A DNA stretch of 16,000 nucleotides, taken from contig NZ_JAVLSP010000034.1 in NCBI RefSeq assembly GCF_031528575.1, positions 21,096 to 37,095 on the forward strand. The letters run 5' to 3'. The DNA is from Candidatus Sororendozoicomonas aggregata (GTDB taxonomy: Bacteria > Pseudomonadota > Gammaproteobacteria > Pseudomonadales > Endozoicomonadaceae). Under the pieces are notes generated by a model. The model was not told where the DNA came from. It saw only the letters and a program-made list of their open reading frames with translations, and did no database searches. Below are positions 3 through 13,291 of the stretch, in pieces (position 1 is the first letter of the stretch; each line of letters starts with the position of its first letter). Position numbers and translations under genes: made by a program.

Positions 3-536
3 AGCCTGGAAGCCTATTGCTCGCCATCCTATCACCCAATGAGTCAGGGAATCGCATTAGAAGGCATGCGGTTGATCAAAGAGAATTTGCCGATCGTTTA
101 TGAGACCCCTTCCAATATGGAAGCCCGCGGCCATATGATGACCGCCGCTGCCATGGGGGCTACAGCTTTCCAAAAAGGTCTCGGAGCCATGCACGCCCTC
201 TCTCACCCTGTCAGCGCGGTATTTAACACCCCCCACGGCATGACCAATGCCGTCGTCATGCCTGCCGTACTGAGGTTCAACCGCCCAGCCATCGAAGAAA
301 GTATCACGTCAGCTGCCTCTTATATGGGAATAGATGGCGGCTTCGATGGTTTCTACGATCACATGATCGCACTCTCTGAAACACTAAATGTCCCGAAATC
401 ACTTGAAGAACTCGGCGCAAACCCGGGCAAAATTGAATTACTCGCAAAAATGGCTATTAAAGACCCAAGCGCTGGAGGAAACCCGGTTGAGTTGACCTTA
501 GAGGCCGCGATTAATCTTTATAGTGAGTGTTTTTAA
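3..536 (+). CDS. Iron-containing (group III) alcohol dehydrogenase family protein, C-terminal part. The 5' end lies upstream of the window.
   Basis: The frame of ORF 39..536 stays open back to nt 3 (SLEAYCSPSYHP precedes the listed Met), so the gene starts upstream. It contains the metal-site region GAMHALSHPVS...HGMTNAVVMPAVLRFN typical of Fe-ADH (PF00465-type) enzymes. Stop TAA at 534..536. Confidence 0.85.
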   Translation, partial: SLEAYCSPSYHPMSQGIALEGMRLIKENLPIVYETPSNMEARGHMMTAAAMGATAFQKGLGAMHALSHPVSAVFNTPHGMTNAVVMPAVLRFNRPAIEESITSAASYMGIDGGFDGFYDHMIALSETLNVPKSLEELGANPGKIELLAKMAIKDPSAGGNPVELTLEAAINLYSECF

Positions 537-586
537 ACCCTGATCAAGCCGTGTCGTCAATGTGGAAGAATGGAAAGTACCGTGGC

Positions 587-700
587 TCACTTACTTACCA
601 AGGCAAGTCGTTGCCCAAAGAAGCGACAACATTGACCTGGCTTCTCCACACCATCGCAAAAGTGGGTGGCTGGCGTGGCTCAGTAAGCGGGGTAAACACA
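587..700 (+). pseudogene. Probable remnant of the C-terminus of an IS4/Tn5(IS50)-like transposase
   Basis: The frame of ORF 527..775 reads KSLPKEATTLTWLLHTIAKVGGWRGS. As I recall it, the conserved C-terminal block of Tn5/IS4-family transposases is ...GSLQWAYMAIARLGGFMDS..., which this resembles. Only about 35 to 60 codons are present. There is no catalytic DDE region, and two frames are open here, as expected for decayed sequence. Confidence 0.35.
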
Positions 701-781
701 GCCCAGAGAATTTTAACATCAGACTCAAAAAGGGAGGTGCTACACTTTTATTATATATTCGTAGCAATTCGGTAAAGAGTG

Positions 782-1045
782 ATGCGTGATTTTTATTTCA
801 CCTTCAAGTACGGTCATAGTCACTTCCCCGGCCATATCAGAATTACTGCTGAAGATCAGGAAGCAGCAACGGCGTTGATGAACAAAAATTACAGTGATCA
901 GTGGTATCACTGTTATGATCAGTTGGCAGATATTGAGCCAGTGGAATGCAATGAGGTAGGGCATATTACCCAGACAGATAGCAAAGCCTCTCTGCTGGCG
1001 AAATATTCTACGCGGTCACCTGAAGAAAATATTTTGTATCATTAA
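782..1045 (+). CDS. Small hypothetical protein (87 aa)
   Basis: Open frame with ATG at 782 preceded by AAAGAG (774..779). The listed ORF begins one codon earlier at GTG 779. The product MRDFYFTFKYGHSHFPGHIRITAEDQEAATALMNKNYSDQWYHCY... has the feel of small orphan or phage-associated proteins, but I cannot name a family. It is followed by a hairpin at 1058..1097. Confidence 0.5.
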   Translation: MRDFYFTFKYGHSHFPGHIRITAEDQEAATALMNKNYSDQWYHCYDQLADIEPVECNEVGHITQTDSKASLLAKYSTRSPEENILYH

Positions 1046-1367: not shown

Positions 1368-1680
1368 CCCTATTTGTTCACTACATGACGCCCATGCTTT
1401 TTAGAAAACCGAAAAACAGGCGGCTCTTCCGTGGGTTCTGCTTATCACAAAAAATCATGAACCGTTTATTATAAAAAGCGATGTATGGTTTGAAATGAAT
1501 GGGCTAAAAAAATGGTGGATTTCAGTTATTAATAGTTACGGTAGTCTCATCATTTGATGTTGTTGGCTATATCATTTTTTATTCTATCCATCTCATTATT
1601 GGAAGCTATTTATCTGGTTTTAATTGACGGTTTAATCAAAAAAATAGTCTATTTTTAGACAGTTACGCGTTTCAAATGAG
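1368..1680 (+). promoter_or_regulatory. AT-rich upstream region of LDLa gene 1, duplicated upstream of gene 2, with a candidate -35 TTGACG at 1624..1629
   Basis: About 310 bp of non-coding sequence is conserved almost base for base with 5046..5364, including TTGACGGTTTAATCAAAAAAATAGTCTATTTTTAG. No convincing -10 hexamer or strong Shine-Dalgarno is visible, only GAG at 1678..1680. Confidence 0.3.
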
Positions 1681-4600
1681 ATGTCAGTTATGTATTTACT
1701 CTTTTTTTATGCTTGTTTCATGGCGCTGTCAGTGTCAGTAAGCCCAACAATTTATGCTGATCCTGATTCCAATCAACCTTTTGGCCCGACCAACGTTATA
1801 CTTAATCACCCTAATAATTTGAGCAATCATCTGGAGGAGGCAAAAGACAATTTAACAGACGATTTTCATAAGTACTGTCGAACCATGCTATTGGCAGAAG
1901 CAGAAGGCTTTACCGATAAGGAAAACTTTTTGAATAGCGAAAGGAAGTCACCTCGTTACTATTTATTCAAGTCGTTATGTATCCGCCATTTCTGGGCTCC
2001 TACCTTCGATAGTTTTATGCGGTACATTGTACACGGAGACCCTGTTCAGGTTTCAGAACTCCCCTTGTTGAAAACCATGATAAAACTGTGTGAGGCACAC
2101 CCCGGAATGACTATTGGTGAGATGATCAGCGAGGTAGAAAACCAGCAGCACGAAGATGAGGGTATCAACACTTTTTTAAGCTATAAAAACAACAGTCTCG
2201 AAAAGCATCAACAAGCGCTGGATGAGATCGTCGGCTTCTATCAGTCCGATAACGACGGGGAATACGAGGGTATCAACCCTGTTTCAGACGACAAAGCCAA
2301 CAGTATCCACAAGCATCAACAAGCGTTGGCTGAAGTCGGCTACGATGAGCTTGAGAACAGCGGGGAATCCTGTGGGGAGTCCTGGTTTGACGGCTGGTTT
2401 GAACACACAAGATTCTCTGGTGTGATAAGCAAACTGACAAACCTGGCTTCTTCCTTTGTCTCCCCTTTGAGCTTGCTAGTGACGGGGCTGCCCTGTGGCG
2501 TGTCAGGTTTTGATTGTAGAAGTGGGGAAACAGTACCGGATAATCGGGTATGTGATGGCAAATGGCACTGCTCTGACGGTAGTGATGAGGCCACCTTCTT
2601 TACGATAGATTTCGAGACCCCCTGTTTTCTATGTAGAGATGATAGTAAGCTGATTCAGAGTAAACTGCTCTGCGACGGCAAGAGACAGTGCGAGGACGGC
2701 AGCGATGAGTCAACCAGCGATGACTATCCCGTCTGTTTCCAATGTAGCGAGGGTGAGCTGATTCGCCGTAATCACAAGATCTGCGATGGCAAAAACGACT
2801 GCGGCAATGGCAGTGATGAGCGTGTCAGCGGCGAGAATCCGTCCTGTCTTCGATGTACAAATGGCGCTATGAGACCTATTGCATTTAAATGCGATGGCTA
2901 CAGAGACTGCCGTAGTGGCAGTGATGAGCTGGCGTGTAATAAGCCTGATACTACTAGCCCCACTGGTAGCCCTACTATTGGCAACTCCTATGTTTGTGAA
3001 AACGGGAAAACCATCCCGGCAGGACAGCGCTGTAATGGAAATCACGAATGTGCTGACGGGAGTGATGAGCAAGCATCAAGGTGCTGTGAAAATCCAGAGC
3101 AGTGGGTTAACGGTACTACCGGGCTGTGTGTTAAAAAAGGCGACCCCGGCACCAGATTCTATGTCTGTCAGAACGGGCATATCATCAATAAAACATTGCA
3201 CTGCGATGGCAATGACAACTGCGGTGACCGGAGTGATGAGAAAGTAGCAACGTGCTGTGAAAATCCAGAGCAGTGGGTTAACGGTGCTACCGGGCTGTGT
3301 GTTAAAAAAGGCGACCCCGGCACCAGATTCTATGCCTGTCAGAACGGGCATATTATGAATAAAACATTGCACTGCGATGGCGATGACGGCTGCGGTGACG
3401 GGAGTGATGAGCGTCCATCAGATTGCTGTGGAAGCAGTGTTCACTCTGTCACCGGGGAGTGTAATAAAAAAGGTGACCCTGACACCAAATTCTTTGTCTG
3501 TGAAAACGGGGAGCGAACCATTCGGGATGACTATCGCTGTAATAATGATTTGAATTGCCCTGACGGCAGTGATGAGCGTACCAACGGCACACGCCCTCCC
3601 TGTTTTCGTTGTGAAAATGGTCGGGTGATTCACAAGTCTGTTTTCATCCAATGCGATGGGGCTAACAACTGCGGTGACTGGAGTGATGAGAGCACCAGCG
3701 GTGAGAACCCTCCCTGTTTTCGTTGTCAAAACGATAAGGTGATTAACCGTGATAACTATCTCTGTGATGGTAGTAACCATTGCGATGACTGGAGTGATGA
3801 ACAGGCCGCGGACTGCTGTAAAAATCCGCGGCGGTGGGTTAACGGTACCACCGGGTTGTGTCATAAAAAGGGAACACGGGGCCACAAATTCTTTGTTTGT
3901 GAAAAAGGGCATACCATCCGAGGAATATGGCATTGTGATACTGGTGACGATTGCGGTGACAGGAGTGATGAAAAGACCAGGGACTGCTGTGTAAATGGGG
4001 AGCTGGGGGTTGATCGTACCACCGGACTGTGTAACAAAATAAGACACCCTGGCGCCAAACTTTATGCTTGCGAGGACGGGCGAACCGTCGCCGGAGATAA
4101 GCGCTGTGACGGTACTATAAACTGCCCTGACGGCAGCGATGAGCGTACCAACGGCACATACCCCCCGTGTTTTAAGTGCAACGATGGTCGATTAGCGTTC
4201 GCTGAAATACGCTGTAACGGTGTAATAAACTGCCCTGACGGCGGTGATGAGCGTACCAACGGCACACACCCCCCGTGTTTTAAGTGCAACGATGGTCAGG
4301 TGAAGCCCACTGAGATGCGCTGTGACGGGAGTATAAACTGCGCTGACGGCAGTGATGAGTTGGCGTGCAATAAATTCAATATTACTCATATTGGTAATAC
4401 GACGAATTTTGGTAATACGACGAATTTTGGTAATACGACGAATTTTGGTAATCATTCTTCCATGGGCAATTCTACTGATCTTACCGACTCTCCTGATACG
4501 CCTGATACTAATAATGCTGTTTTAAGCGCGCTTCTATCGACCCCAGTCCTGGTGGCGATAGGCGCAGGGGCAGGCCTGGCCTATTATGCTGTAATGCTGG

Positions 4601-4725
4601 TCATTGAAAAAGATAAAATAAAGTCAGAAGGTAAGTTTAAATGGCTGGTTTCTCCTATCACCACCCCCTATAAATACCTGAGGCGTCGTTGTGGCCACCA
4701 AGAAGTTGAAGCTGAGGAAGTGTAG
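1681..4725 (+). CDS. LDL-receptor class A (LDLa) repeat protein with 14 modules, an N-terminal signal peptide and a C-terminal TM anchor (paralogue 1)
   Basis: 1014-aa ORF. Signal-like N-terminus MSVMYLLFFYACFMALSVSVSPTIYA|D. There are 14 occurrences of C-[DN]-G-x3-C-x-D-x-[SG]-D-E (for example CDGKRQCEDGSDE, CDGNDNCGDRSDE). TM helix AVLSALLSTPVLVAIGAGAGLAYYAVMLVI at 4516..4605, followed by a basic tail. The start could be ATG 1681 or ATG 1690. Confidence 0.85.
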   Translation: MSVMYLLFFYACFMALSVSVSPTIYADPDSNQPFGPTNVILNHPNNLSNHLEEAKDNLTDDFHKYCRTMLLAEAEGFTDKENFLNSERKSPRYYLFKSLCIRHFWAPTFDSFMRYIVHGDPVQVSELPLLKTMIKLCEAHPGMTIGEMISEVENQQHEDEGINTFLSYKNNSLEKHQQALDEIVGFYQSDNDGEYEGINPVSDDKANSIHKHQQALAEVGYDELENSGESCGESWFDGWFEHTRFSGVISKLTNLASSFVSPLSLLVTGLPCGVSGFDCRSGETVPDNRVCDGKWHCSDGSDEATFFTIDFETPCFLCRDDSKLIQSKLLCDGKRQCEDGSDESTSDDYPVCFQCSEGELIRRNHKICDGKNDCGNGSDERVSGENPSCLRCTNGAMRPIAFKCDGYRDCRSGSDELACNKPDTTSPTGSPTIGNSYVCENGKTIPAGQRCNGNHECADGSDEQASRCCENPEQWVNGTTGLCVKKGDPGTRFYVCQNGHIINKTLHCDGNDNCGDRSDEKVATCCENPEQWVNGATGLCVKKGDPGTRFYACQNGHIMNKTLHCDGDDGCGDGSDERPSDCCGSSVHSVTGECNKKGDPDTKFFVCENGERTIRDDYRCNNDLNCPDGSDERTNGTRPPCFRCENGRVIHKSVFIQCDGANNCGDWSDESTSGENPPCFRCQNDKVINRDNYLCDGSNHCDDWSDEQAADCCKNPRRWVNGTTGLCHKKGTRGHKFFVCEKGHTIRGIWHCDTGDDCGDRSDEKTRDCCVNGELGVDRTTGLCNKIRHPGAKLYACEDGRTVAGDKRCDGTINCPDGSDERTNGTYPPCFKCNDGRLAFAEIRCNGVINCPDGGDERTNGTHPPCFKCNDGQVKPTEMRCDGSINCADGSDELACNKFNITHIGNTTNFGNTTNFGNTTNFGNHSSMGNSTDLTDSPDTPDTNNAVLSALLSTPVLVAIGAGAGLAYYAVMLVIEKDKIKSEGKFKWLVSPITTPYKYLRRRCGHQEVEAEEV
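3082..3423 (+). repeat. Near-identical 171-bp (57-aa) in-frame tandem duplication, two units
   Basis: Units 3082..3252 and 3253..3423 both begin TGCTGTGAAAATCCAGAGCAGTGGGTTAACGG. They differ at only a handful of positions over the first ~125 nt. A third, diverged unit starts at 3424. Confidence 0.9.
4123..4338 (+). repeat. 108-bp (36-aa) in-frame tandem duplication, two units
   Basis: Units 4123..4230 and 4231..4338 both begin TGCCCTGACGGC(A/G)G(C/T)GATGAGCGTACCAACGGCACA(T/C)ACCCCCCGTGTTTTAAGTGCAACGATGGTC. Paralogue 2 has a single unit, starting at 8431. Confidence 0.9.
4393..4452 (+). repeat. 18-bp in-frame tandem repeat GGTAATACGACGAATTTT (GNTTNF), three units plus a partial unit
   Basis: Perfect units at 4393..4410, 4411..4428 and 4429..4446, followed by GGTAAT. 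Paralogue 2 has one diverged unit at 8593..8610. Confidence 0.95.
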
Positions 4726-4851: not shown

Positions 4852-4935
4852 TTAGCCCGGATATTTCATAAACTGCCCTTAGAGCCGCAAGGAGCAAGCA
4901 AGGCCAGGAGCATGTTTATGAAATATCCAGGTTAG
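4852..4935 (+). mobile_element. Type-2 MITE-like palindromic element (84 bp), flanked by TTAG
   Basis: Termini are GCCCGGATATTTCATAAAC ... GTTTATGAAATATCCAGG(T). It is nearly identical to the reverse complement of 12244..12327. It lies exactly at the end of duplication unit 1. Confidence 0.7.
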
Positions 4936-4989
4936 TAAAAAGGGAAAGGACTTCCCTTTAAAAATATTAAGAAGCAGTCTTAAAAGTCT

Positions 4990-5058
4990 GCCCGTAGCGA
5001 GGACCGCGAGAAATGGCGGATAAAAAGTCGCTTTTGTGAGGAGAATAGCGGGACTATT
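4990..5058 (+). mobile_element. Truncated internal fragment of the type-1 MITE
   Basis: GCCCGTAGCGAGGACCGCGAGAAATGGCGGATAAAAAGTCGCTTTTGTGAGGAGAATAGCGGGACTATT aligns with the left-central part of the copies at 8887, 12080 and (reverse complement) 10737. The terminal inverted repeats are absent. Confidence 0.5.
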
Positions 5059-5364
5059 GTTCATCACATGACGCCCCATGCTTTTTAGAAAACCAAAAAA
5101 CAGGCGGCTCTTCCATGGGGTCTGTTTATCACAAAAAATCATGAACCGTTTATTATAAAAAGTGAGGATATGGTTTGAAACGAATGGGCTAAAAAAATGG
5201 CTGATTTCAGTTCGTAATAACCACGGGAGTCTCATCATTTAATGTTGTTGGCTATATCATTTTTCATTCTATCTATCTCATTATTGGAAGCTATTTATCT
5301 GTTTTCAATTGACGGTTAAATCAAAAAATAGTCTATTTTTAGGCAGTTACGCGCTTCAAGTGAG
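5046..5364 (+). promoter_or_regulatory. Duplicated upstream region of LDLa gene 2, with a candidate -35 TTGACG at 5309..5314
   Basis: Near-identical to 1368..1680. Conservation of this much non-coding sequence between paralogues suggests a shared promoter or leader. Confidence 0.3.
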
Positions 5365-8300
5365 ATGTCAGTTATGTATTTACTCTTTTTTTATGTTTTT
5401 TTCATGGCGCTGTCAGCGTCAGTAAGCCCAACAATTTATGCTGATTCTGATTCCAATCAACCTTTTGGCCCGACCAACGTTATACTTAATCACCCTAATA
5501 ATTTAAGCAATCATCTGGAAGAGGCAAAAGACAATTTAACAGACGATTTTCATAAGTACTGTCGAACCATGCTATTGGCAGAAGCAGAAGGCTTTACCGA
5601 TAAGGAAGACTTTTTGAATAGCGAAAGGAAGTCACCTCGTTACTATTTATTCAAGGCGTTATGTATCCGCCATTTCTGGGCCCCTAACCTTGATAGTTTT
5701 ATGCGGTACATTGTACACGGAGACCCTGTTCAGGTTTCAAAACTCCCCTTGTTGAAAACCATGATAAAACTGTGTGAGGCACACCCCGGAATGACTATTG
5801 GTGAGATGATCAGCGAGGTAGAAAACCAGCAGCACGAAGATGAGGGTATCAACACTTTTTTAAGCTATAAAAACAACAGTCTCGAAAAGCATCAACAAGC
5901 GCTGGATGAGATCGTCGGCTTCTATCAGTCCGATAACGACGGGGAATACGAGGGTATCAACCCTGTTTCAGACGACAAAGCCAATTGTATTAAAGAGCAT
6001 CAACAAGCGTTGGCTGAAGTCGGCTACGATGAGCTTGAGAACAGCGGGGAATCCTGTGGAGATTCCTGGTTTGACGGTTGGTTCAAACAAACAAAACTCT
6101 CTGGTGTGATAAGTACACTGACAAACCTGGCTTCTTCCGTTGTCTCCCCTTTTAGCTTGCTGGCGATGGGTCTGCCCTGTGATGTATCAGGTTTTGTTTG
6201 TGACAATGGGGAAGTAGTGCCAGATTATTGGGCGGGGTCTCTACGGTGCAATAAAAAGAGAGAGTGCGAAGACGGTAGTGATGAGCGCTCCAGCGGTTTT
6301 CGCCCCCCCTGTTTTCAATGTAACAGCGATGGTAAGCTAATTCAGAGTGAACGGCTCTGCAATGGCAAGAGAGAGTGCGATGACGGTAGCGATGAGGCAA
6401 CCAGCGGTGTCAACCCCCTCTGTTTCCACTGTGGCAAAGAGGGTGAGCTGATTCGCAATAATCTCCAGATCTGCGATAGCAGAAACCACTGCAGCAATGG
6501 CGGTGATGAGCGTACCAGCGGCAAGAATCCTCCCTGTTTTCGATGTAAAAATGGTGATTGGATTATTCGTAAAGAAATGCGCTGTAACGGTATTAAAAAC
6601 TGCGATGACCACAGTGATGAACAGGCCAATAACTGCTGTGAAAATTGGACGTTGCAGAGCAAAGGTAACAGACTGTGTAATAAAAAAGGAGACCCTGGTA
6701 CCAAATTATATGTCTGTCAAAATGGACAAACCATCAAGAAAACATGGCGCTGCGATGGCCAAGTTGATTGCGTCGACGGCAGTGATGAGCGCGCCAGCGG
6801 TGCGACCGCCCCCTGTTTTCGTTGTAAACAGGGTAATCCAGTGCTCAGTGAAATGCGCTGTAACGGTGTTAAAGACTGCGATTACGCCAGTGATGAGCGG
6901 GCTGGAGACTGCTGTGAAAATTGGACGTTGCAGAGCAACGGTAACAGATTGTGTCATAAAAAAGGAGACCCCGGTACCAAATTCTATGTCTGTCAAAATG
7001 GACAAACCATCAAAGCAGCATGGCGCTGCGATGGCGTAGTTCATTGCATCGGCGTCATTCCCAGTGATGAACGCGTCAGCGGTGCCAACCCTGCCTGTTT
7101 TCGTTGTCAAAACGCTCGGATAATTAAAAATAACCACCTGATCTGCAATGGCGAAGACGACTGCGGCGACAATAGTGATGAGAGCGACTGTTTTCATTGT
7201 AAAAATGGTGATCGGGTTCGTAGTGAAATGCGCTGCGATGACCACCAGGACTGCGCTGATAACAGTGATGAGCTGCTGTGTCATTCCTTTGACTGCTCAA
7301 ACGGACAGGAAACCATCGAGATAGAATATTACTGTGATGGAATGGGCCACTGTAGTGACGGGAGTGATGAACAAGCGCAAAACTGCTGTGAAAACCCGGA
7401 GCTATTGGTTAACGGTACCACGGGTCTGTGTATTAAAAAAGGACACCCCGACATCACATTATTTGTCTGTCAAAACAGGAAAACCATCCGGCCAGAATTT
7501 CACTGTAATGGCTATACAGAATGCAGTGACATGAGTGATGAGCAACCACAAGACTGCTGTGAAAATCCGGAGCGGTGGGTTAAGGGCACTACCGGGCTGT
7601 GTAATAAAAAAGGAAACCCCGGCGCGGAATTATATGTTTGTCAAAACGGGCGAACCACCCGGCCAGAATTTCACTGTAATGGCTATAACGATTGCGGTGA
7701 TGGAAGTGATGAGCAAGCATCAAAATGCTGTGTAAATCCGGGGCGGTGGATTTGGGGCACCACCGGGGTGTGTGATAAAAAAGGAGACCCTGGTACGAAA
7801 TTCTATGTTTGTCAAAATGGGCAAACCATCAACGAAGCATGGCGCTGCAATCGCATTAACGAGTGCGGTGATGGGAGTGATGAACGCATCAGCGGTCACA
7901 ACCCTCCCTGTTTTCTTTGTCAAAATGGTCGGTTCATTCACAACTTTTTTGGCATGACCTGCAATGGTAGGAACAACTGCGGTGACTGGAGTGATGAGAG
8001 CGCCAGCGGTGACAACGCTCCTTGTTTTCGTTGTCAAAATGGTACGGTGATTAGCCGTAGTGGCATGTTCTGCAATGGCGTTAACAATTGCGATGACTGG
8101 AGTGATGAGCAGGCCGCGGACTGCTGTCAAAATCCGCGGCGGTGGGTTAACGGTACCACCGGGTGGTGTCATAAAAAGGGAACACGGGGCCAGAAACTCT
8201 TTGTTTGTGAAAAAGGGCATACCATCCGAGAATTATGGCATTGTGATACTTTTGACGATTGCGGTGGCAGGAGTGATGAAAAGACTGAAGACTGCTGTGT

Positions 8301-8889
8301 CAATGGGGAGCTGGGGGTTGATCGTACCACCAGACTGTGTGACAAAATAAGACACCCTGGCGCTAAACTTTATGCTTGCGAGGACGGGCGAACCGTCGCG
8401 GGAGATAAGCGCTGTGACGGTAGTATAAACTGCCTTGACGGCAGCGATGAGCGTACCAACGGCACATATCCCCCGTGTTTTAAGTGCGACAATGGCCAGG
8501 TGAAGCCCACTGAGATGCGCTGTGACGGTTTTATCAACTGCGCTGACGGCAGTGATGAGCTGGCGTGCAATAAATTCAATATTACTCATACTGGCAATAC
8601 AACGAATTTTGGTAATCATTCTTTCATGGGCAATTATACGGATATTAACGACTCTCCTGATACGCCTGATACTAATAATGCTGTCTTAAGCGCGCTGCTA
8701 TCGACCCCAGTCCTGGTGGCGATAGGCGCAGGGGCAGGCCTGGCCTATTATGCTGTGATGTTGGTCATTGAAAGAGATAAAATAAAGTCAGAAGGTAAGT
8801 TGAAATGGCTGGTTTCTCCTATCATCGCCCCCTATAAATACCTGTTGCGTCGTTGTGGCTGCCAAGAAGTTGAAGCTGATGAAGTGTAG
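5365..8889 (+). CDS. LDL-receptor class A (LDLa) repeat protein with 18 modules, an N-terminal signal peptide and a C-terminal TM anchor (paralogue 2)
   Basis: 1174-aa ORF. The first ~270 aa and the last ~250 aa are very similar to paralogue 1. There are 18 C-[DN]-x-x3-C-x-D-x-[SG]-D-E type motifs, one of them degenerate (CDGVVHCIGVIPSDE). TM helix at 8680..8769. The stop TAG 8887..8889 coincides with the first bases of a MITE. Confidence 0.85.
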   Translation: MSVMYLLFFYVFFMALSASVSPTIYADSDSNQPFGPTNVILNHPNNLSNHLEEAKDNLTDDFHKYCRTMLLAEAEGFTDKEDFLNSERKSPRYYLFKALCIRHFWAPNLDSFMRYIVHGDPVQVSKLPLLKTMIKLCEAHPGMTIGEMISEVENQQHEDEGINTFLSYKNNSLEKHQQALDEIVGFYQSDNDGEYEGINPVSDDKANCIKEHQQALAEVGYDELENSGESCGDSWFDGWFKQTKLSGVISTLTNLASSVVSPFSLLAMGLPCDVSGFVCDNGEVVPDYWAGSLRCNKKRECEDGSDERSSGFRPPCFQCNSDGKLIQSERLCNGKRECDDGSDEATSGVNPLCFHCGKEGELIRNNLQICDSRNHCSNGGDERTSGKNPPCFRCKNGDWIIRKEMRCNGIKNCDDHSDEQANNCCENWTLQSKGNRLCNKKGDPGTKLYVCQNGQTIKKTWRCDGQVDCVDGSDERASGATAPCFRCKQGNPVLSEMRCNGVKDCDYASDERAGDCCENWTLQSNGNRLCHKKGDPGTKFYVCQNGQTIKAAWRCDGVVHCIGVIPSDERVSGANPACFRCQNARIIKNNHLICNGEDDCGDNSDESDCFHCKNGDRVRSEMRCDDHQDCADNSDELLCHSFDCSNGQETIEIEYYCDGMGHCSDGSDEQAQNCCENPELLVNGTTGLCIKKGHPDITLFVCQNRKTIRPEFHCNGYTECSDMSDEQPQDCCENPERWVKGTTGLCNKKGNPGAELYVCQNGRTTRPEFHCNGYNDCGDGSDEQASKCCVNPGRWIWGTTGVCDKKGDPGTKFYVCQNGQTINEAWRCNRINECGDGSDERISGHNPPCFLCQNGRFIHNFFGMTCNGRNNCGDWSDESASGDNAPCFRCQNGTVISRSGMFCNGVNNCDDWSDEQAADCCQNPRRWVNGTTGWCHKKGTRGQKLFVCEKGHTIRELWHCDTFDDCGGRSDEKTEDCCVNGELGVDRTTRLCDKIRHPGAKLYACEDGRTVAGDKRCDGSINCLDGSDERTNGTYPPCFKCDNGQVKPTEMRCDGFINCADGSDELACNKFNITHTGNTTNFGNHSFMGNYTDINDSPDTPDTNNAVLSALLSTPVLVAIGAGAGLAYYAVMLVIERDKIKSEGKLKWLVSPIIAPYKYLLRRCGCQEVEADEV
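6178..8568 (+). repeat. In-frame array of 18 LDLa-like modules
   Basis: Same module grammar as 2494..4368. There are 7 CC-linker (long) modules here against 5 in paralogue 1. Confidence 0.85.
6634..7188 (+). repeat. Two-module super-repeat of about 276 bp (92 to 93 aa), two units
   Basis: Units start at 6634 and 6910 with TGCTGTGAAAATTGGACGTTGCAGAGCAA(A/C)GGTAACAGA. The first ~130 nt are nearly identical (CCENWTLQS.GNRLC.KKGDPGTK.YVCQNGQTIK..WRCDG). The remainder has diverged. Confidence 0.8.
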
Positions 8890-9051
8890 GGGCCTGTCCG
8901 AGAACAGCGCCCGTAGGAGGATTGCCAGAAATTGAGGATAAAATTTCTGCTTCTGAGGAGAGCAGCGAGGCTATTTGATGAAGAAGCAGGAGTTTTTAGA
9001 CCAATTTATCGCAACCGCAGTGGGGCAGTCTATTCTCGGTCAGGCTGCTAG
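8887..9051 (+). mobile_element. Type-1 MITE-like element (165 bp), copy A
   Basis: TAG-GGGCCTGTCCGAGAACAG ... CTATTCTCGGTCAGGCTGC-TAG, with imperfect terminal inverted repeats flanked by TAG. It has no coding capacity. It is absent from the equivalent position after paralogue 1, where the stop TAG is followed directly by CCAATTAT (compare TCAATGAT after this copy). Confidence 0.75.
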
Positions 9052-9354
9052 TCAATGATGGGCTGTAGTGAAAGTCTATCGTCGTTTAATTATAAGCACT
9101 ACTTGCCAGGGCATCAAATGTTGATGGTGTTCTGGTAACGGCCTGAAAAACGCCGCGCACCTTACCATAATGACTGCACGTCACTGGAGGTTTTGGTGCC
9201 GCTGATACGATCAGGTCGCGTTTTACCCTGCTATGACCTTAACAACAAATAGCGGCAAAAATAGCGGCAAAAAAACTGTTTATCGGGGCTTGTTATCACC
9301 TGCTATCAGTGAAATAGTGTGGGTTGTTTTTCCTTCTCTGGTAAGCTCCCTTTC

Positions 9355-10683
9355 ATGTTTTCTCACTTCCCCCTGAACAAGCGCTTGTTAAAGGCTCTTG
9401 ACGCGCTTTCATTGACAACCCCAACACCTGTCCAGCAGCAGGCCATTCCGTTCATACTGGCCGGTAAGGATATGCTGGTGGGAGCAGAAACTGGCAGTGG
9501 TAAGACAGCGGCATTTTTACTGCCTATGTTGCACCGCTTCCATGAAACCCCTTCGCCGCGATCAGTCACACGCGCGCTGGTGCTGGTGCCTACCCGTGAA
9601 CTGGCCCGGCAAGTGCTCAGACAGTGTGAAGCATTGGCTCGCTATACCCTTATAAAAGCAACAGTTATCATCGGTGGAGACAGCTTCAAGTACCAGGCTG
9701 CCAGCCTGCGAAAAAACCCAGACATTGTGATTGCCACACCGGGACGTCTTGCGGAGCATGTGGGGCGCCGTACCATTGACCTTGGCGATCTTGAGGTCCT
9801 CGTGCTTGATGAAGCTGACCGGATGCTGGATATGGGCTTTAGGGACGATGTGCTATTGATAGCGGGGCGTAGTCGCCTTGAACGCCAAACCCTCTTGTTT
9901 TCCGCAACAATGAGACAAAAGGGTCTGCGTGATGTCATTACGGCAGTGTTAAATGAGCCAGAAGAAATCAGGCTTAATGATACGCGCGGCACCCATGAAA
10001 AAATCAAGCAGCAAATTATTCTGGCCGATGACCTGAAGCACAAAGAAAAGCTATTGGCGGCCCTGCTCAGGGCTGAGATTGGTGAAAAAGTGGTCGTATT
10101 TACCAATACCCGTCTACAGGCAGATAAACTCGGGCGTTGGTTGCGTTATCACAAGCACAAAGTGGGAGTTCTCCATGGCGATATGACCCAGGAGGAGCGC
10201 AATCAGGTGATTCACTTTTTCCGGGAAGGTCGGATGACAGTGTTGGTGGCTACAGATCTAGCTGCCCGGGGTCTGGATGTGAAAGGGGTTACGCTGGTGG
10301 TGAATCTCGATATGGCGCGCGGTGGTGATGACTATGTCCACCGCATTGGCCGAACGGGCAGGGCAGGGGAGCAAGGATTGGCAGTCACCTTTATCAGTCC
10401 CTCTGAGTGGAACCTGATGGTCAGCATTGAGCGCTACCTGGGTGCAACCTTTGAACGGCGCGTCATTAAGGGTTTGGAAGGTCATTACAAGGGCCCTAAA
10501 AAGCTGAAAGCTTCAGGCAAAGCAGCTGGCCGTAAAAAGAAACTGACCGGAAAAAAGAAGGCAGAGTCTGCTGGCAAATTGAAAAACCGTGATAAGAAAA
10601 GTATTGGAAAACGGCGCAAGCCCACAAAATTAGAGGCAGGATCTATGCTTGACGTGGGGTTTGAGCCTTTAAAGAAAAGATAG
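9355..10683 (+). CDS. srmB: ATP-dependent DEAD-box RNA helicase, SrmB-like
   Basis: Motifs present: Q motif TPTPVQQQAIP, I AETGSGKT, Ia PTRELA, TPGRL, II DEAD, III SAT, V ARGLD, VI HRIGRTGRAG. It is colinear by eye with E. coli SrmB, including DDLKHK (DDLEHK) and the basic tail ...KSIGKRRKP (...KNIGKRRKP). ATG 9355 (MFSHFPLNKRLLKAL) fits the SrmB N-terminus better than the listed GTG 9319. Confidence 0.85.
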   Translation: MFSHFPLNKRLLKALDALSLTTPTPVQQQAIPFILAGKDMLVGAETGSGKTAAFLLPMLHRFHETPSPRSVTRALVLVPTRELARQVLRQCEALARYTLIKATVIIGGDSFKYQAASLRKNPDIVIATPGRLAEHVGRRTIDLGDLEVLVLDEADRMLDMGFRDDVLLIAGRSRLERQTLLFSATMRQKGLRDVITAVLNEPEEIRLNDTRGTHEKIKQQIILADDLKHKEKLLAALLRAEIGEKVVVFTNTRLQADKLGRWLRYHKHKVGVLHGDMTQEERNQVIHFFREGRMTVLVATDLAARGLDVKGVTLVVNLDMARGGDDYVHRIGRTGRAGEQGLAVTFISPSEWNLMVSIERYLGATFERRVIKGLEGHYKGPKKLKASGKAAGRKKKLTGKKKAESAGKLKNRDKKSIGKRRKPTKLEAGSMLDVGFEPLKKR

Positions 10684-10736
10684 TCAATAAGGATGTCGCT
10701 TCGCCCCACATGCTTTAGGTGGCGAATGAGCACCAC

Positions 10737-10904
10737 CTAGGAGCCTGTCCGAGAATAGACTGCCCTACTGCGGTGGCAGCAAATTGGTCTAAAAAGTCGG
10801 AAATTTTTAGCAAATAGAACCACTATTCACTAAAAATTTCCGACTTTTTATCCTCAATTTTCTGCCATCCTCGCTACGGGCGCTATTCTCGGACAGCCTC
10901 CTAG
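10737..10904 (-). mobile_element. Type-1 MITE-like element (168 bp), copy B, inverted relative to copies A and C
   Basis: CTAG-GAGCCTGTCCGAGAATAG ... CTATTCTCGGACAGCCTC-CTAG. The interior holds a 20-bp inverted repeat, AAAAAGTCGGAAATTTTTAG / CTAAAAATTTCCGACTTTTT. Its reverse complement aligns with copies A and C. Confidence 0.75.
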
Positions 10905-10949
10905 CAACACAACCTTCGAGGCAAAGCTTCGCAATGCCTGCGGTTGTTT

Positions 10950-10982
10950 CCCCCACCAAGCTAAAGCTCTGGTGGGGGTTTT
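10950..10982 (+). terminator. Rho-independent terminator, probably for srmB
   Basis: Perfect 9-bp GC-rich stem CCCCCACCA / TGGTGGGGG with an 11-nt loop, followed by TTTT. There is no T-tract on the opposite strand. Confidence 0.6.
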
Positions 10983-11004
10983 GACCCTGCGCTATTTGAT
11001 AAAA

Positions 11005-11499
11005 CTATAACATTGATTTAACGAGGTTCTTTCGACTAAATAACGAGGTAATCACGATAGCCAGCAGGTGGATACCGATGAAGTAGAACAGACTATTGAC
11101 CAATAAGCTGTGCCATTCATAGACACCCTGTTCAAGTCCAAAATCGGTGTCCTGAAGCCAGCCAGTAAAAGCGCAAAGTAACAACATTGTCCACATGAAC
11201 CAGACAGCCATAGCCCCCAACGGGTTATGACCGTGGGGTTGGTAATTGCCTTCTTTCAGCTCCTGAAGGTGATGCTCAACACCCTTGATAGAAAAGCAAA
11301 TATCTCGAAGTCGGGCAGGCGTCTTGGCAAAGGTCATACCATAGAGCAGGCGCAAGCAAACCAGTAAAAGAATCCCCCAGCCAGCATAGGTATGATACTG
11401 GCTTCCTCCTCCAAACAGGAACTGATTGCTAAAAAAAAGCACGACTACTGACCAGTGAATCAGCTTGACAACGCCAGGCCAACGGAATGGTTCAGACAT
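11005..11499 (-). CDS. Cytochrome b561-family (PF01292-like) di-haem membrane protein
   Basis: Four hydrophobic helices carry the conserved His pattern (IHWSVV, YHTYAGW, EWHSLL, GIHLLA). The preferred start is ATG 11499 (MSEPFRWPG...), which overlaps the upstream stop as ATGTCTGA. The listed ORF start 11532 would overlap cybC by 41 nt. Confidence 0.7.
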   Translation of the reverse strand: MSEPFRWPGVVKLIHWSVVVLFFSNQFLFGGGSQYHTYAGWGILLLVCLRLLYGMTFAKTPARLRDICFSIKGVEHHLQELKEGNYQPHGHNPLGAMAVWFMWTMLLLCAFTGWLQDTDFGLEQGVYEWHSLLVNSLFYFIGIHLLAIVITSLFSRKNLVKSML

Positions 11500-11926
11500 C
11501 GAATTTGCCGTGGTATTGTTTCTTGATATCATTGAGCGCTTTCATTCTATTTTTAGCAAGATCGAGATCACCCGCGTTAATGGCGTCCTGAACTGATGAC
11601 AGGCCCGTCAGTAGCTCGCTAACACCTGTCTGGAATGCTTCAGGATCTTCAGAGTACCCCGCTTTTTTTGCTTTTTCAGCATAGGCATGAAATTCATCTA
11701 CGTAGCCCTGCAGCTCATCCAGTGTTTTTGCAGAAATAGAGCGCTTAAAGTTAAACCCCATTGTTTTCATTGCTGCGCTCAACGGCTTACTTCCGCCTTC
11801 CTTTTTTATTTCTTCAGCCTGCATGCTATCGCTAGCTGTTGGTGCGCCGTTGACAATATAGGCGGTGCTTAAAACCACTACTGACAGCGCCACGGGAATA
11901 AGGACTGCTTTTAAGTTAAATTGCAT
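11492..11926 (-). CDS. cybC: Soluble periplasmic cytochrome b562 family protein
   Basis: Signal peptide MQFNLKAVLIPVALSVVVLSTAYIVNGA. Four-helix-bundle-like sequence with an N-proximal Met (AAMKTMGFNFK) and the C-terminal motif KKQYHGKF, comparable to E. coli b562 RNAYHQKY (Met/His haem ligands). Confidence 0.7.
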   Translation of the reverse strand: MQFNLKAVLIPVALSVVVLSTAYIVNGAPTASDSMQAEEIKKEGGSKPLSAAMKTMGFNFKRSISAKTLDELQGYVDEFHAYAEKAKKAGYSEDPEAFQTGVSELLTGLSSVQDAINAGDLDLAKNRMKALNDIKKQYHGKFDV

Positions 11927-12079
11927 TTTAAAGCCCTGAAAGTGAAATTTTCAAAGGATAATAAAACATGTATTGATGTATTTCCAGTGTCTTATCCCCC
12001 CATAGGCTGCAGATGGACAAGTACTTTATTGGCATAGCCGCATTAGCGTCAGGAACAACCCTGAAGAGGAATAACAGCC

Positions 12080-12640: not shown

Positions 12641-13000
12641 TCAGGCAGCCAGAGCGGTTTTCGCTTTTTCCACCAGCTGGCCGAAGACAGCCTTCTCATG
12701 AACAGCCAGATCAGCCAATACCTTACGGTCGATTTCAATCGCAGATTTTTTCAAACCAGCGATAAAGCGGCTGTACGACAGACCGTTCATACGTGCGCCC
12801 GCATTGATACGGGCAATCCACAGGGCGCGGAACTGACGTTTACGCTGACGGCGGTCACGGTAAGCGTACTGACCGGCTTTGGTCACCGCTTGCTTGGCGA
12901 CGCGGAATACACGCGAACGCGCGCCGTAGTAACCTTTAGCCTGCTTGAGAACTTTTTTATGTCGACGACGTGCAATGACGCCACGCTTGACGCGAGCCAT
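12641..13000 (-). CDS. rplT: 50S ribosomal protein L20
   Basis: [39 protein letters not shown]... is unmistakably L20. GGAG lies 8 nt upstream of the ATG. Confidence 0.97.
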
Positions 13001-13031: not shown

Positions 13032-13223
13032 TCAGTCACGCAGCATACGCTTGACGAGGCCCGTGTCGGCTGGGGATACCATAGAAGTACCCCTCAGTTG
13101 ACGCTTACGCTTGGTAGTCATCTTGGTCAGGATGTGACTCTTGAACGCCCCTTTACGCTTGTAGCCAGAAGCTGTTTTCTTGAAACGCTTCGCGGCCCCA
13201 CTGTTGGTTTTCATCTTAGGCAT
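13032..13223 (-). CDS. rpmI: 50S ribosomal protein L35
   Basis: [45 protein letters not shown] matches L35 (E. coli [17 protein letters not shown]...). ATG 13223 has GGAG 8 nt upstream. The listed start 13232 is a GTG three codons upstream. Confidence 0.95.
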
Positions 13224-13291
13224 GAAAAACACTCCGCATTTGGGTCATCCCTCAGGATGCCGAAATAGTTTAATCACACAGTAACCCTTAT

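Follow-up and report, generated by a model that had tools for sequence, protein, structure and literature searches.

In the lipoprotein and yolk receptors of animals, ligands are classically bound by LA modules (the domain of Pfam family PF00057). A canonical module carries six cysteines paired C1-C3, C2-C5 and C4-C6, and in the LR5 module of LDLR the Ca2+ ligands are D196, D200, D206 and E207, which correspond to the residue after C4 (C4+1), the residue before C5 (C5-1) and the D-E of an S-D-E motif. We know of no characterised bacterial LA protein, and none surfaced in our searches either. Here we describe two adjacent genes, gene 1 and gene 2, on a 16,000-nucleotide (nt) stretch of DNA from Candidatus Sororendozoicomonas aggregata (contig NZ_JAVLSP010000034.1, positions 21,096 to 37,095 of the forward strand; hereafter the window, numbered from its first letter), whose products carry arrays of 14 and 18 LA modules from which the canonical C3 cysteine is missing throughout. 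We conclude that they belong to a real, undescribed, clade-restricted and expanded family that is a variant of the known LA domain, and that may, judging from sequence, capture host ligands.

The small type-I receptors CD320/8D6A, Tva and LDLRAD3 have a signal peptide, LA modules, a Ser/Thr/Asn-rich stalk, a single transmembrane (TM) helix and a short tail (compare PMC9550310), and the two window proteins have the same kinds of parts. The animal receptors differ in that their canonical six-Cys modules number one to three and an N-terminal helical domain is lacking, whereas the window proteins have 14 to 18 modules of four or six cysteines and are encoded in a bacterial chromosomal context. In LDLR-family endocytic receptors an EGF-precursor homology region (EGF plus YWTD propeller) and an NPxY tail motif come after the LA array. 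These features were not found here: Pfam gave no EGF or Ldl_recept_b hits, and the tails of gene 1 and gene 2 contain no NPxY. The parts of the two genes are as follows.

1681..4725 (+), gene 1, 1014 aa; published locus MGKHPG_08705, whose annotated start lies 3 codons later
1681..1758 (+), predicted signal peptide of gene 1, from hydropathy; ends ...SPTIYA before DPDS, with aa 1-25 hydrophobic
1759..2493 (+), N-terminal domain of gene 1, family-specific
2494..4368 (+), array of gene 1 with 14 LA modules, nine with four Cys and five with six
3070..3240, 3241..3411 and 3412..3576 (+), long modules 6, 7 and 8 of gene 1, with a CC...C insert and a 171-nt period
3802..3972 and 3973..4143 (+), long modules 11 and 12 of gene 1, with a CC...C insert
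4369..4515 (+), Asn/Thr-rich stalk of gene 1: NIT, GNTTNF three times, NHS and NST, then DSPDTPDT
4516..4605 (+), C-terminal TM helix of gene 1, AVLSALLSTPVLVAIGAGAGLAYYAVMLVI
4606..4722 (+), tail of gene 1, with the family-conserved motif G-x-x-x-W-L-x-S-P-I-T-x-P
5365..8889 (+), gene 2, 1174 aa, tandem paralogue with 18 LA modules; published locus MGKHPG_08710
6178..8568 (+), array of gene 2 with 18 LA modules, 11 with four Cys and seven with six
6622..6789, 6898..7071, 7372..7542, 7543..7713, 7714..7884, 8110..8280 and 8281..8451 (+), long modules of gene 2
8569..8679 (+), stalk of gene 2
8680..8769 (+), TM helix of gene 2
8770..8886 (+), conserved tail of gene 2

In the gene 1 product the signal peptide and the N-terminal domain are followed by the 14 LA modules, then by the Asn/Thr stalk, the TM helix and a tail of 39 aa. 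Its hydropathy profile has exactly two hydrophobic segments, aa 1-25 and 946-975, which are type-I topology signals. The probable cleavage site of its signal peptide lies at a ...YA motif that is conserved across the family, and in both genes the signal peptide is without a basic n-region. Both arrays were placed exactly by the initial annotation, an earlier reading of the DNA letters by a model, as spans from first to last Cys (aa 272 to aa 896 in gene 1). Candidatus Sororendozoicomonas aggregata lives in symbiosis with the coral Pocillopora, and from residue 4 on the gene 2 product is identical with one of its hypothetical proteins, P0001. The two genes form a tandem duplication in which about 290 nt of DNA ahead of the gene were copied as well, and gene 2 is 480 nt longer because of its extra modules.

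Segmentation on the anchors C-x5-C-...-[SG]DE gave 14 and 18 modules, 32 in all, and the scaffold cysteines C2, C4, C5 and C6 are kept in every one. The stretch from C2 to C4 spans 11-15 residues and holds a Cys in none of the 32, the C4-C5 spacing is 5 in all of them, and module 1 is the one module in either gene with a C1-like Cys. In residue-level phmmer alignments to the solved modules of LRP4 and LRP2, V or T stands opposite the canonical C3 (for example frcqndkVi against FHCDNGKCI), and the single Cys before F-x-C aligns with a non-Cys residue of the canonical modules. These alignments show that C3 is missing and not mis-registered, as the initial annotation had proposed when it reported that this position is never Cys. 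The acidic positions are largely retained: the C4+1 residue is D or N in 32 of 32 modules, 26 modules have D, E, N or Q at C5-1 and 26 have D at C5+2, while SDE is present in 30 modules and GDE in the other 2, so that D-E is kept in 32 of 32. The oxygen-donor positions of the acidic Ca2+ cage therefore appear essentially intact in the window modules.

Two module classes had been described, with five insert-bearing modules in gene 1 and seven in gene 2, and both the classes and the counts were confirmed: 20 of the 32 modules have four cysteines, and 12 have six, with a CC...C insert and a length of 55-58 aa. The length of 36-38 aa originally given for the short class is right for most of its members and fails for modules of 30, 33, 40, 45 (two modules) and 47 aa, which sit at array starts or around non-LA linkers. 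In canonical modules an aromatic residue, usually Trp, two residues before C4 (C4-2) forms the pocket in which Lys docks. Trp occupies this position in five modules, as IWHC in gene 1 and as TWRC, AWRC, AWRC and LWHC in gene 2; elsewhere this residue is F or Y (6 of 32) or aliphatic or charged (21 of 32). The retention of W-x-C-D that had been noted thus holds for five modules and does not extend to most of the array.

Comparison with metazoan LA modules (PF00057; LDLR LR5, LRP4 and LRP2) gives a consistent picture. They share with the window modules the core F-x-C2-x-N-G-x-x-I ... C4-[DN]-G-x2-[DN]-C5-x-D-x-S-D-E and equal C2-C4 and C4-C5 spacing, with significant profile and pairwise matches, among them alignments to solved modules of LRP4, LRP2 and LDLR. 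At a gathering cutoff of 24.1 bits, PF00057 matched gene 1 over 14 stretches (E = 1.5e-74, 246 bits) and gene 2 over 17 (E = 5e-90, 296 bits), that is, 17 of its 18 modules. The matches cover roughly positions 8-35 of the hidden Markov model (HMM), and the best gene 2 stretch begins at position 8, downstream of C1. In contrast to the metazoan modules, those of the window have V, T, I, L or another non-Cys residue for C3 (32 of 32), lack C1 save for the C1-like Cys of module 1, carry Trp at C4-2 in only the five modules given above, and have C6 moved from SDE+3 to SDE+5...+12, mostly +10, where it abuts the next module; 12 of them also carry a 27-30-aa Cys-pair insert that was found in no metazoan protein. 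The window modules are recognised by the LA profile, then, with C2, C4, C5 and C6 in place of the full set of six cysteines. Among metazoan comparators, 2 of 49 modules lack C1 and C3, one in P0009 (aa 28-70), a trypsin-domain protein, and one in P0011 (aa 578-620), a kinase of Allacma fusca. The four-Cys form thus arises sporadically in metazoa; what is unusual here is that the loss of C1 and C3 is fixed throughout the modules of a whole family and goes together with two stereotyped linkers.

Short modules create a C-x-x-C at every junction, which raises the question of whether the repeats are LA folds at all. If they were not, C-F-x-C and C-x5-C would pair locally, bind metal or perform redox chemistry, and the similarity to LA would be confined to the acidic tail. 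An AlphaFold model of a short and a long module together, built from a 9-row alignment, gave no LA fold (mean pLDDT 41, unusable). We regard this explanation as very unlikely, given that PF00057 matches all gene 1 modules and nearly all of gene 2, that the C2-C4 and C4-C5 spacings are canonical, and that the C-x-x-C is not conserved, being C-x4-C at gene 2 module 10, C-x19-C at a gene 1 linker and C-C-...-C2 in the long modules. The joint loss of C4 and C6 in terminal modules of Candidatus Endonucleobacter, described below, also argues against it.

The Cys that follows each SDE, from the pattern across the family, closes the module before it as C6 and does not open the one after it as C1. This assignment, already made in the initial annotation, rests on three observations. 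First, the final modules of both arrays end in the canonical SDE-L-A-C with nothing LA-like beyond, and gene 1 module 4 likewise ends SDE-x2-C, followed by a 20-aa non-LA linker whose only Cys is C6 of module 4, so that module 5 opens at Y-V-C2. Second, the spacing of C6 to C2 varies while the cores remain intact, with SDE-S-D-C-F-H-C and SDE-L-L-C-H-S-F-D-C both present in gene 2. Third, a C1-like Cys is altogether absent from the first modules of Endonucleobacter arrays. In the last module of the paralogues from the Endonucleobacter of Gigantidas childressi (DCYCRNGALILNEFNYNNTEHNCHG...), N stands at C4 and C6 is absent, with C2 and C5 kept, and this joint loss supports C2-C5 and C4-C6 pairing. 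In the long modules we take the first Cys of the CC pair to be C6. Its second Cys and the Cys of G-L-C are always present together and absent together, and for this reason they would most simply be paired with each other.

Two linkers join the modules. The short one is 9 aa and Pro-rich (x-[ST]-[SG]-G-x-N-P-P-C6), and its Cys lies two residues before the next C2, so that neighbouring modules are nearly fused. The long one is 27-34 aa (x4-C6-C-x13-C-x-K-K-G-x-P-x4-[FY]-x-C2) and adds a Cys pair of its own. Most likely this pair staples a hairpin by a disulfide, and the hairpin with the basic loop after it stands in for the N-terminal lobe that was lost. The inserts known from Sororendozoicomonas, 15 in all with 12 in the window, have the consensus CC-E-N-P-x2-W-V-N-G-T-T-G-L-C-x-K-K-G-D-P-G-T-K-[LF]-Y-V-C, in which all three Cys, C2 and the Lys at +2 from the third Cys are invariant. 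Family-wide, among 46 unique inserts, loop 1 has 13 residues in 34 and loop 2 has 12 residues in 40, K or R stands at +2 in 36, and loop 1 contains [VIF]-N-x-[ST] in 36.

An exhaustive HMMER search with a 32-column profile of the insert against 1.84 billion representative proteins (E <= 1e-3) returned eight hits: P0001, P0002, P0012-P0016 and one unrelated low-complexity repeat protein that is spurious. No eukaryotic protein in that set carries the insert. Isolated inserts had no Pfam match at E <= 10, the whole proteins had none in NCBIfam, and the insert profile had none among PDB sequences; a word-indexed protein search with the insert alignment gave no hits and also missed the query's own source proteins, so it was not read as absence. 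The suggestion that the insert is not a known annotated domain is borne out by these searches, and because its profile matches this bacterial family only, so is the proposal of a distinct, undescribed LA sub-family as opposed to a copied host gene.

Sororendozoicomonas is the source of P0001 and of P0002, a third paralogue whose gene lies on a small contig. Candidatus Endonucleobacter bathymodioli and Endonucleobacter sp. ex Gigantidas childressi are the sources of P0012-P0016, which share the full architecture, with a signal peptide ending ...YA, the N-terminal domain, an LA array with both linkers, a sequon-repeat stalk and a TM helix; their tail motif is W-L-x-S-P-I-T-E-P. We show that the family is restricted to Sororendozoicomonas and its sister genus Candidatus Endonucleobacter, which together make up a monophyletic clade with streamlined genomes, sister to Endozoicomonas sensu stricto (PMC13286007), and it is therefore clade-specific. 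Within Endonucleobacter it has expanded in tandem, with four family genes in a row in locus L001 and consecutive locus tags QS721_09665-09695. Family loci of this genus also include JASXSV010000018.1 3465-15923 and JASXSV010000015.1 74470-86946. In locus L003 (Ca. Endonucleobacter bathymodioli JASXSV010000015.1) a family gene at 5608..8208 is followed on the same strand, 770 nt downstream, by an IAP-type gene at 8979..11999 that encodes 1006 aa with three BIR domains and a RING domain. Endonucleobacter IAP genes have been published as acquired from the mussel host (PMC11521996), and two animal-type genes thus lie side by side. The IAPs and the LA family share the same clade, an animal-type domain, multi-copy expansion and this adjacency in L003 (PMC11521996). 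They differ in that the IAPs group phylogenetically with host IAPs (PMC11521996), whereas the LA family has no detectable animal donor.

The N-terminal domain is about 240 aa and, in a partly confident AlphaFold model (block means up to 95 between residues 20 and 150; overall mean 57.8), mainly helical with a few short strands. Foldseek found nothing like the model in PDB or BFVD, and the domain had no meaningful match in Pfam, in NCBIfam or, as a profile, among PDB sequences. In a scan of 185,579 species at one genome per species its profile hit only two Endonucleobacter genomes, at 8 loci, and no relative was confirmed in the JGI metagenome collection; the word-indexed protein search with this profile missed known members, and its nulls were not read as absence. 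Both window genes contain an internal duplication of 108 nt (36 aa; E-G-I-N...H-Q-Q-A-L) within the domain, at 2152..2230 / 2260..2338 and 5836..5914 / 5944..6022, which is present neither in the third Sororendozoicomonas paralogue nor in Endonucleobacter.

These results bear on whether the genes are simple recent copies of a coral or mussel LA-receptor gene, a whole type-I receptor transferred essentially unchanged. Several features would fit such a transfer: the resemblance to small animal LA receptors, stalks rich in N-x-T, the signal peptides of gene 1 and gene 2 without a basic n-region, the fact that the clade has acquired animal IAP genes, one of which adjoins a family member, and per-module scores that are highest against metazoan LA modules. 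We nevertheless consider it unlikely. The eukaryotic carrier of the insert that it calls for was absent from the representatives searched, the N-terminal domain is without a homologue outside the clade, and protein searches yielded no animal homologue of the full-length protein, of the N-terminal domain or of the insert. The best metazoan matches reach only 25-31% identity with E = 1e-11 or weaker, and the family is common to two genera with different hosts, one cnidarian and one mollusc. An ancient transfer of LA modules followed by diversification within the lineage would be compatible with the explanation that we prefer, namely a clade-specific family of host-ligand-binding proteins.

Prokaryotes themselves offer another possible source, a native lineage of Cys-poor LA-like repeats of the PRKCSH/glucosidase-II-beta type in place of animal-type LA modules. 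The strongest non-family matches of gene 1 are P0003-P0005, metagenome proteins with about 20 two-Cys LA-like repeats (FxC...VNDGxxDCxDGSDE), PF12999 and PGF-CTERM-like C-termini, which are probably archaeal surface proteins of a separate prokaryotic lineage. Like the window proteins they are prokaryote-encoded and form long arrays without C1 or C3 and with a D-C-x-D-G-S-D-E tail. Unlike them, their repeats lack C4 (VNDG for C-D-G) and C6, both of which the window modules keep (C4 in 32 of 32), and they have no CC insert, no shared N-terminal domain and a PGF-CTERM-like anchor. PF12999 gave no hit on gene 1 or gene 2 in the Pfam search. The high total scores of P0003-P0005 come from repeat number; with an HMM of the 32 window cores, their repeats score 14-26 bits each, whereas metazoan LA modules score 25-33 bits each. 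The higher metazoan per-module scores together with the retention of C4 and C6 mark the window modules as LA cores of animal type from which C1 and C3 have been lost, and we find a native prokaryotic origin improbable.

We favour, with moderate confidence, the explanation that gene 1 and gene 2 encode exported, membrane-tethered, Ca-dependent host-ligand-binding proteins of a family specific to Sororendozoicomonas and Endonucleobacter. In these proteins the LA core is cut to C2, C4, C5 and C6, which by homology with canonical LA should pair C2-C5 and C4-C6 around an intact acidic Ca cage, [DN]-x3-[DNE]-C-x-D-x-S-D-E; the C1-C3 hairpin disulfide is gone. The disulfide map and Ca binding that we propose would be established by Sec export followed by oxidation and Ca loading outside the cytoplasm, with the C-terminal helix tethering the protein to a membrane. 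The array, a bead-on-a-string, could then bind basic patches on host proteins, acting as an adhesin or as a ligand trap that mimics host LA receptors. Tandem units of 171 nt and 108-114 nt are evident in the arrays, as is the duplication of the whole gene, and the arrays grow and vary by these routes.

Several points weigh against this explanation. Chief among them, a signal peptide and a C-terminal TM helix in a Gram-negative bacterium predict a periplasmic array tethered to the inner membrane and not exposed on the surface, and the route from that predicted site to host ligands is unexplained; both cellular location and ligands are put forward here as candidates. Trp at C4-2 is central to canonical Lys docking, and with only 5 of 32 modules carrying it, docking in the manner of LDLR should not be assumed for most of the array. 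In addition, several Endonucleobacter modules lack the SDE cage, the extracytoplasmic Cys of gene 1 are odd in number (67 from the array and 4 from the N-terminal domain), the AlphaFold model of the module pair was unusable, and the Sororendozoicomonas and Endonucleobacter genome papers and their supplements contain no expression or localisation data for the LA proteins, nor do they discuss these proteins (PMC10833068, PMC11521996).

A bolder joint reading, which we hold to be rather doubtful, is that the proteins are bacterial mimics of the type-I LA receptors of animals and build their LA arrays in a new way. The CC insert would be a disulfide-stapled hairpin whose near-invariant Lys (C-x-K-K) might, speculatively, plug the Ca/acidic pocket of the neighbouring module, and because of this plug a floppy string of beads would become a rigid or auto-inhibited rod. 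Glycans would be carried by the conserved [VIF]-N-x-T of the insert and by the sequon-array stalks, and the ligands captured would be of host lipoprotein or yolk type. If true, the mimic could aid tissue aggregation and vertical transmission in Sororendozoicomonas or host-cell entry in Endonucleobacter. N-x-S/T sequons number 17 in the whole gene 1 product against 9.9 expected (p ~0.016), a weak enrichment, and are not significantly enriched in the whole gene 2 product. The stalks are arrays of N-x-T sequons, with GNTTNF three times in the window and NFTDS five times in Endonucleobacter, the latter fitting D-x-N-x-T. A PglB-type sequon (D/E-x-N-x-S/T) was considered for the window and rejected, as it fits the Endonucleobacter NFTDS stalks and not the F-G-N-T-T stalks of the window.

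This clade-specific, expanded family is found in those Endozoicomonadaceae that are most intimate with animal tissue, one lineage forming vertically passed, cell-associated aggregates in corals and the other, the intranuclear parasite Endonucleobacter, living in mussel nuclei. It is a concrete candidate for host-ligand capture or mimicry. It may also serve as a natural experiment, an LA array without the C1-C3 disulfide in every module and with the N-terminal lobe replaced by a Cys-stapled element.

The window is bacterial chromosome, with the two large paralogous open reading frames (ORFs) lying between adh and srmB. Its other features are given below.

39..536, C-terminus of an Fe-alcohol dehydrogenase (adh)
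527..775 (+), 779..1045 (+) and 4879..5238 (-), small ORFs with no Pfam match
1391..1680 (+), upstream region of gene 1, 91-95% identical to 5075..5364
5075..5364 (+), upstream region of gene 2, the duplicate
9319..10683, DEAD-box helicase, srmB-like
minus strand, cytochrome b561 and b562 and the thrS-infC-rpmI-rplT operon
12641..13000 (-) and 13032..13232 (-), rplT and rpmI, which complete a standard thrS-infC-rpmI-rplT operon

The published annotation has the same gene order of alcohol dehydrogenase, a hypothetical gene, MGKHPG_08705, MGKHPG_08710 and srmB, and lists both MGKHPG loci as hypothetical with PF00057 hits (PMC10833068 supplement). The eukaryote-like proteins treated in that paper are ankyrin, WD40 and TPR proteins only, and the two loci were therefore never discussed (PMC10833068).

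This setting speaks to the concern that the genes are an artefact or in decay, whether through a mis-binned host contig, an assembly chimera or the pseudogenisation of functionless repeats. The sequence comes from a metagenome-assembled genome, the protein collection lacks the exact gene 1 product, and dN/dS between gene 1 and gene 2 (NG86) is high, at 0.43 for the N-terminal domain and 0.82-0.86 for paired modules, on small counts. Yet both genes stand on one contig among the bacterial adh, srmB, cytochrome b561/b562 and thrS-infC-rpmI-rplT genes. Both ORFs are intact, running uninterrupted for 1014 and 1174 codons, and their Cys/acidic scaffold is conserved, with the scaffold Cys in every module and D-E in 32 of 32, while the loops vary. 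The same family occurs, moreover, in three independently assembled genomes, and we give artefact or decay hardly any credence.

Apart from one duplicated, weak promoter-like site, Rfam, tRNA and promoter/terminator scans of the window returned nothing relevant, and the promoter count over the whole region was not above the shuffled expectation. The small ORF at 4879..5238 (-) shares sequence with the duplicated region ahead of gene 2 and is unlikely to be a gene, and the infC ORF as listed has TTG as its start codon. The promoter-like site is sigma-70-like (ATCACA-17-TATTAT, 9/12) and is identical in the two upstream regions, at 1444..1472 and 5128..5156 (+), about 210 nt ahead of the start codon of gene 1 and gene 2.

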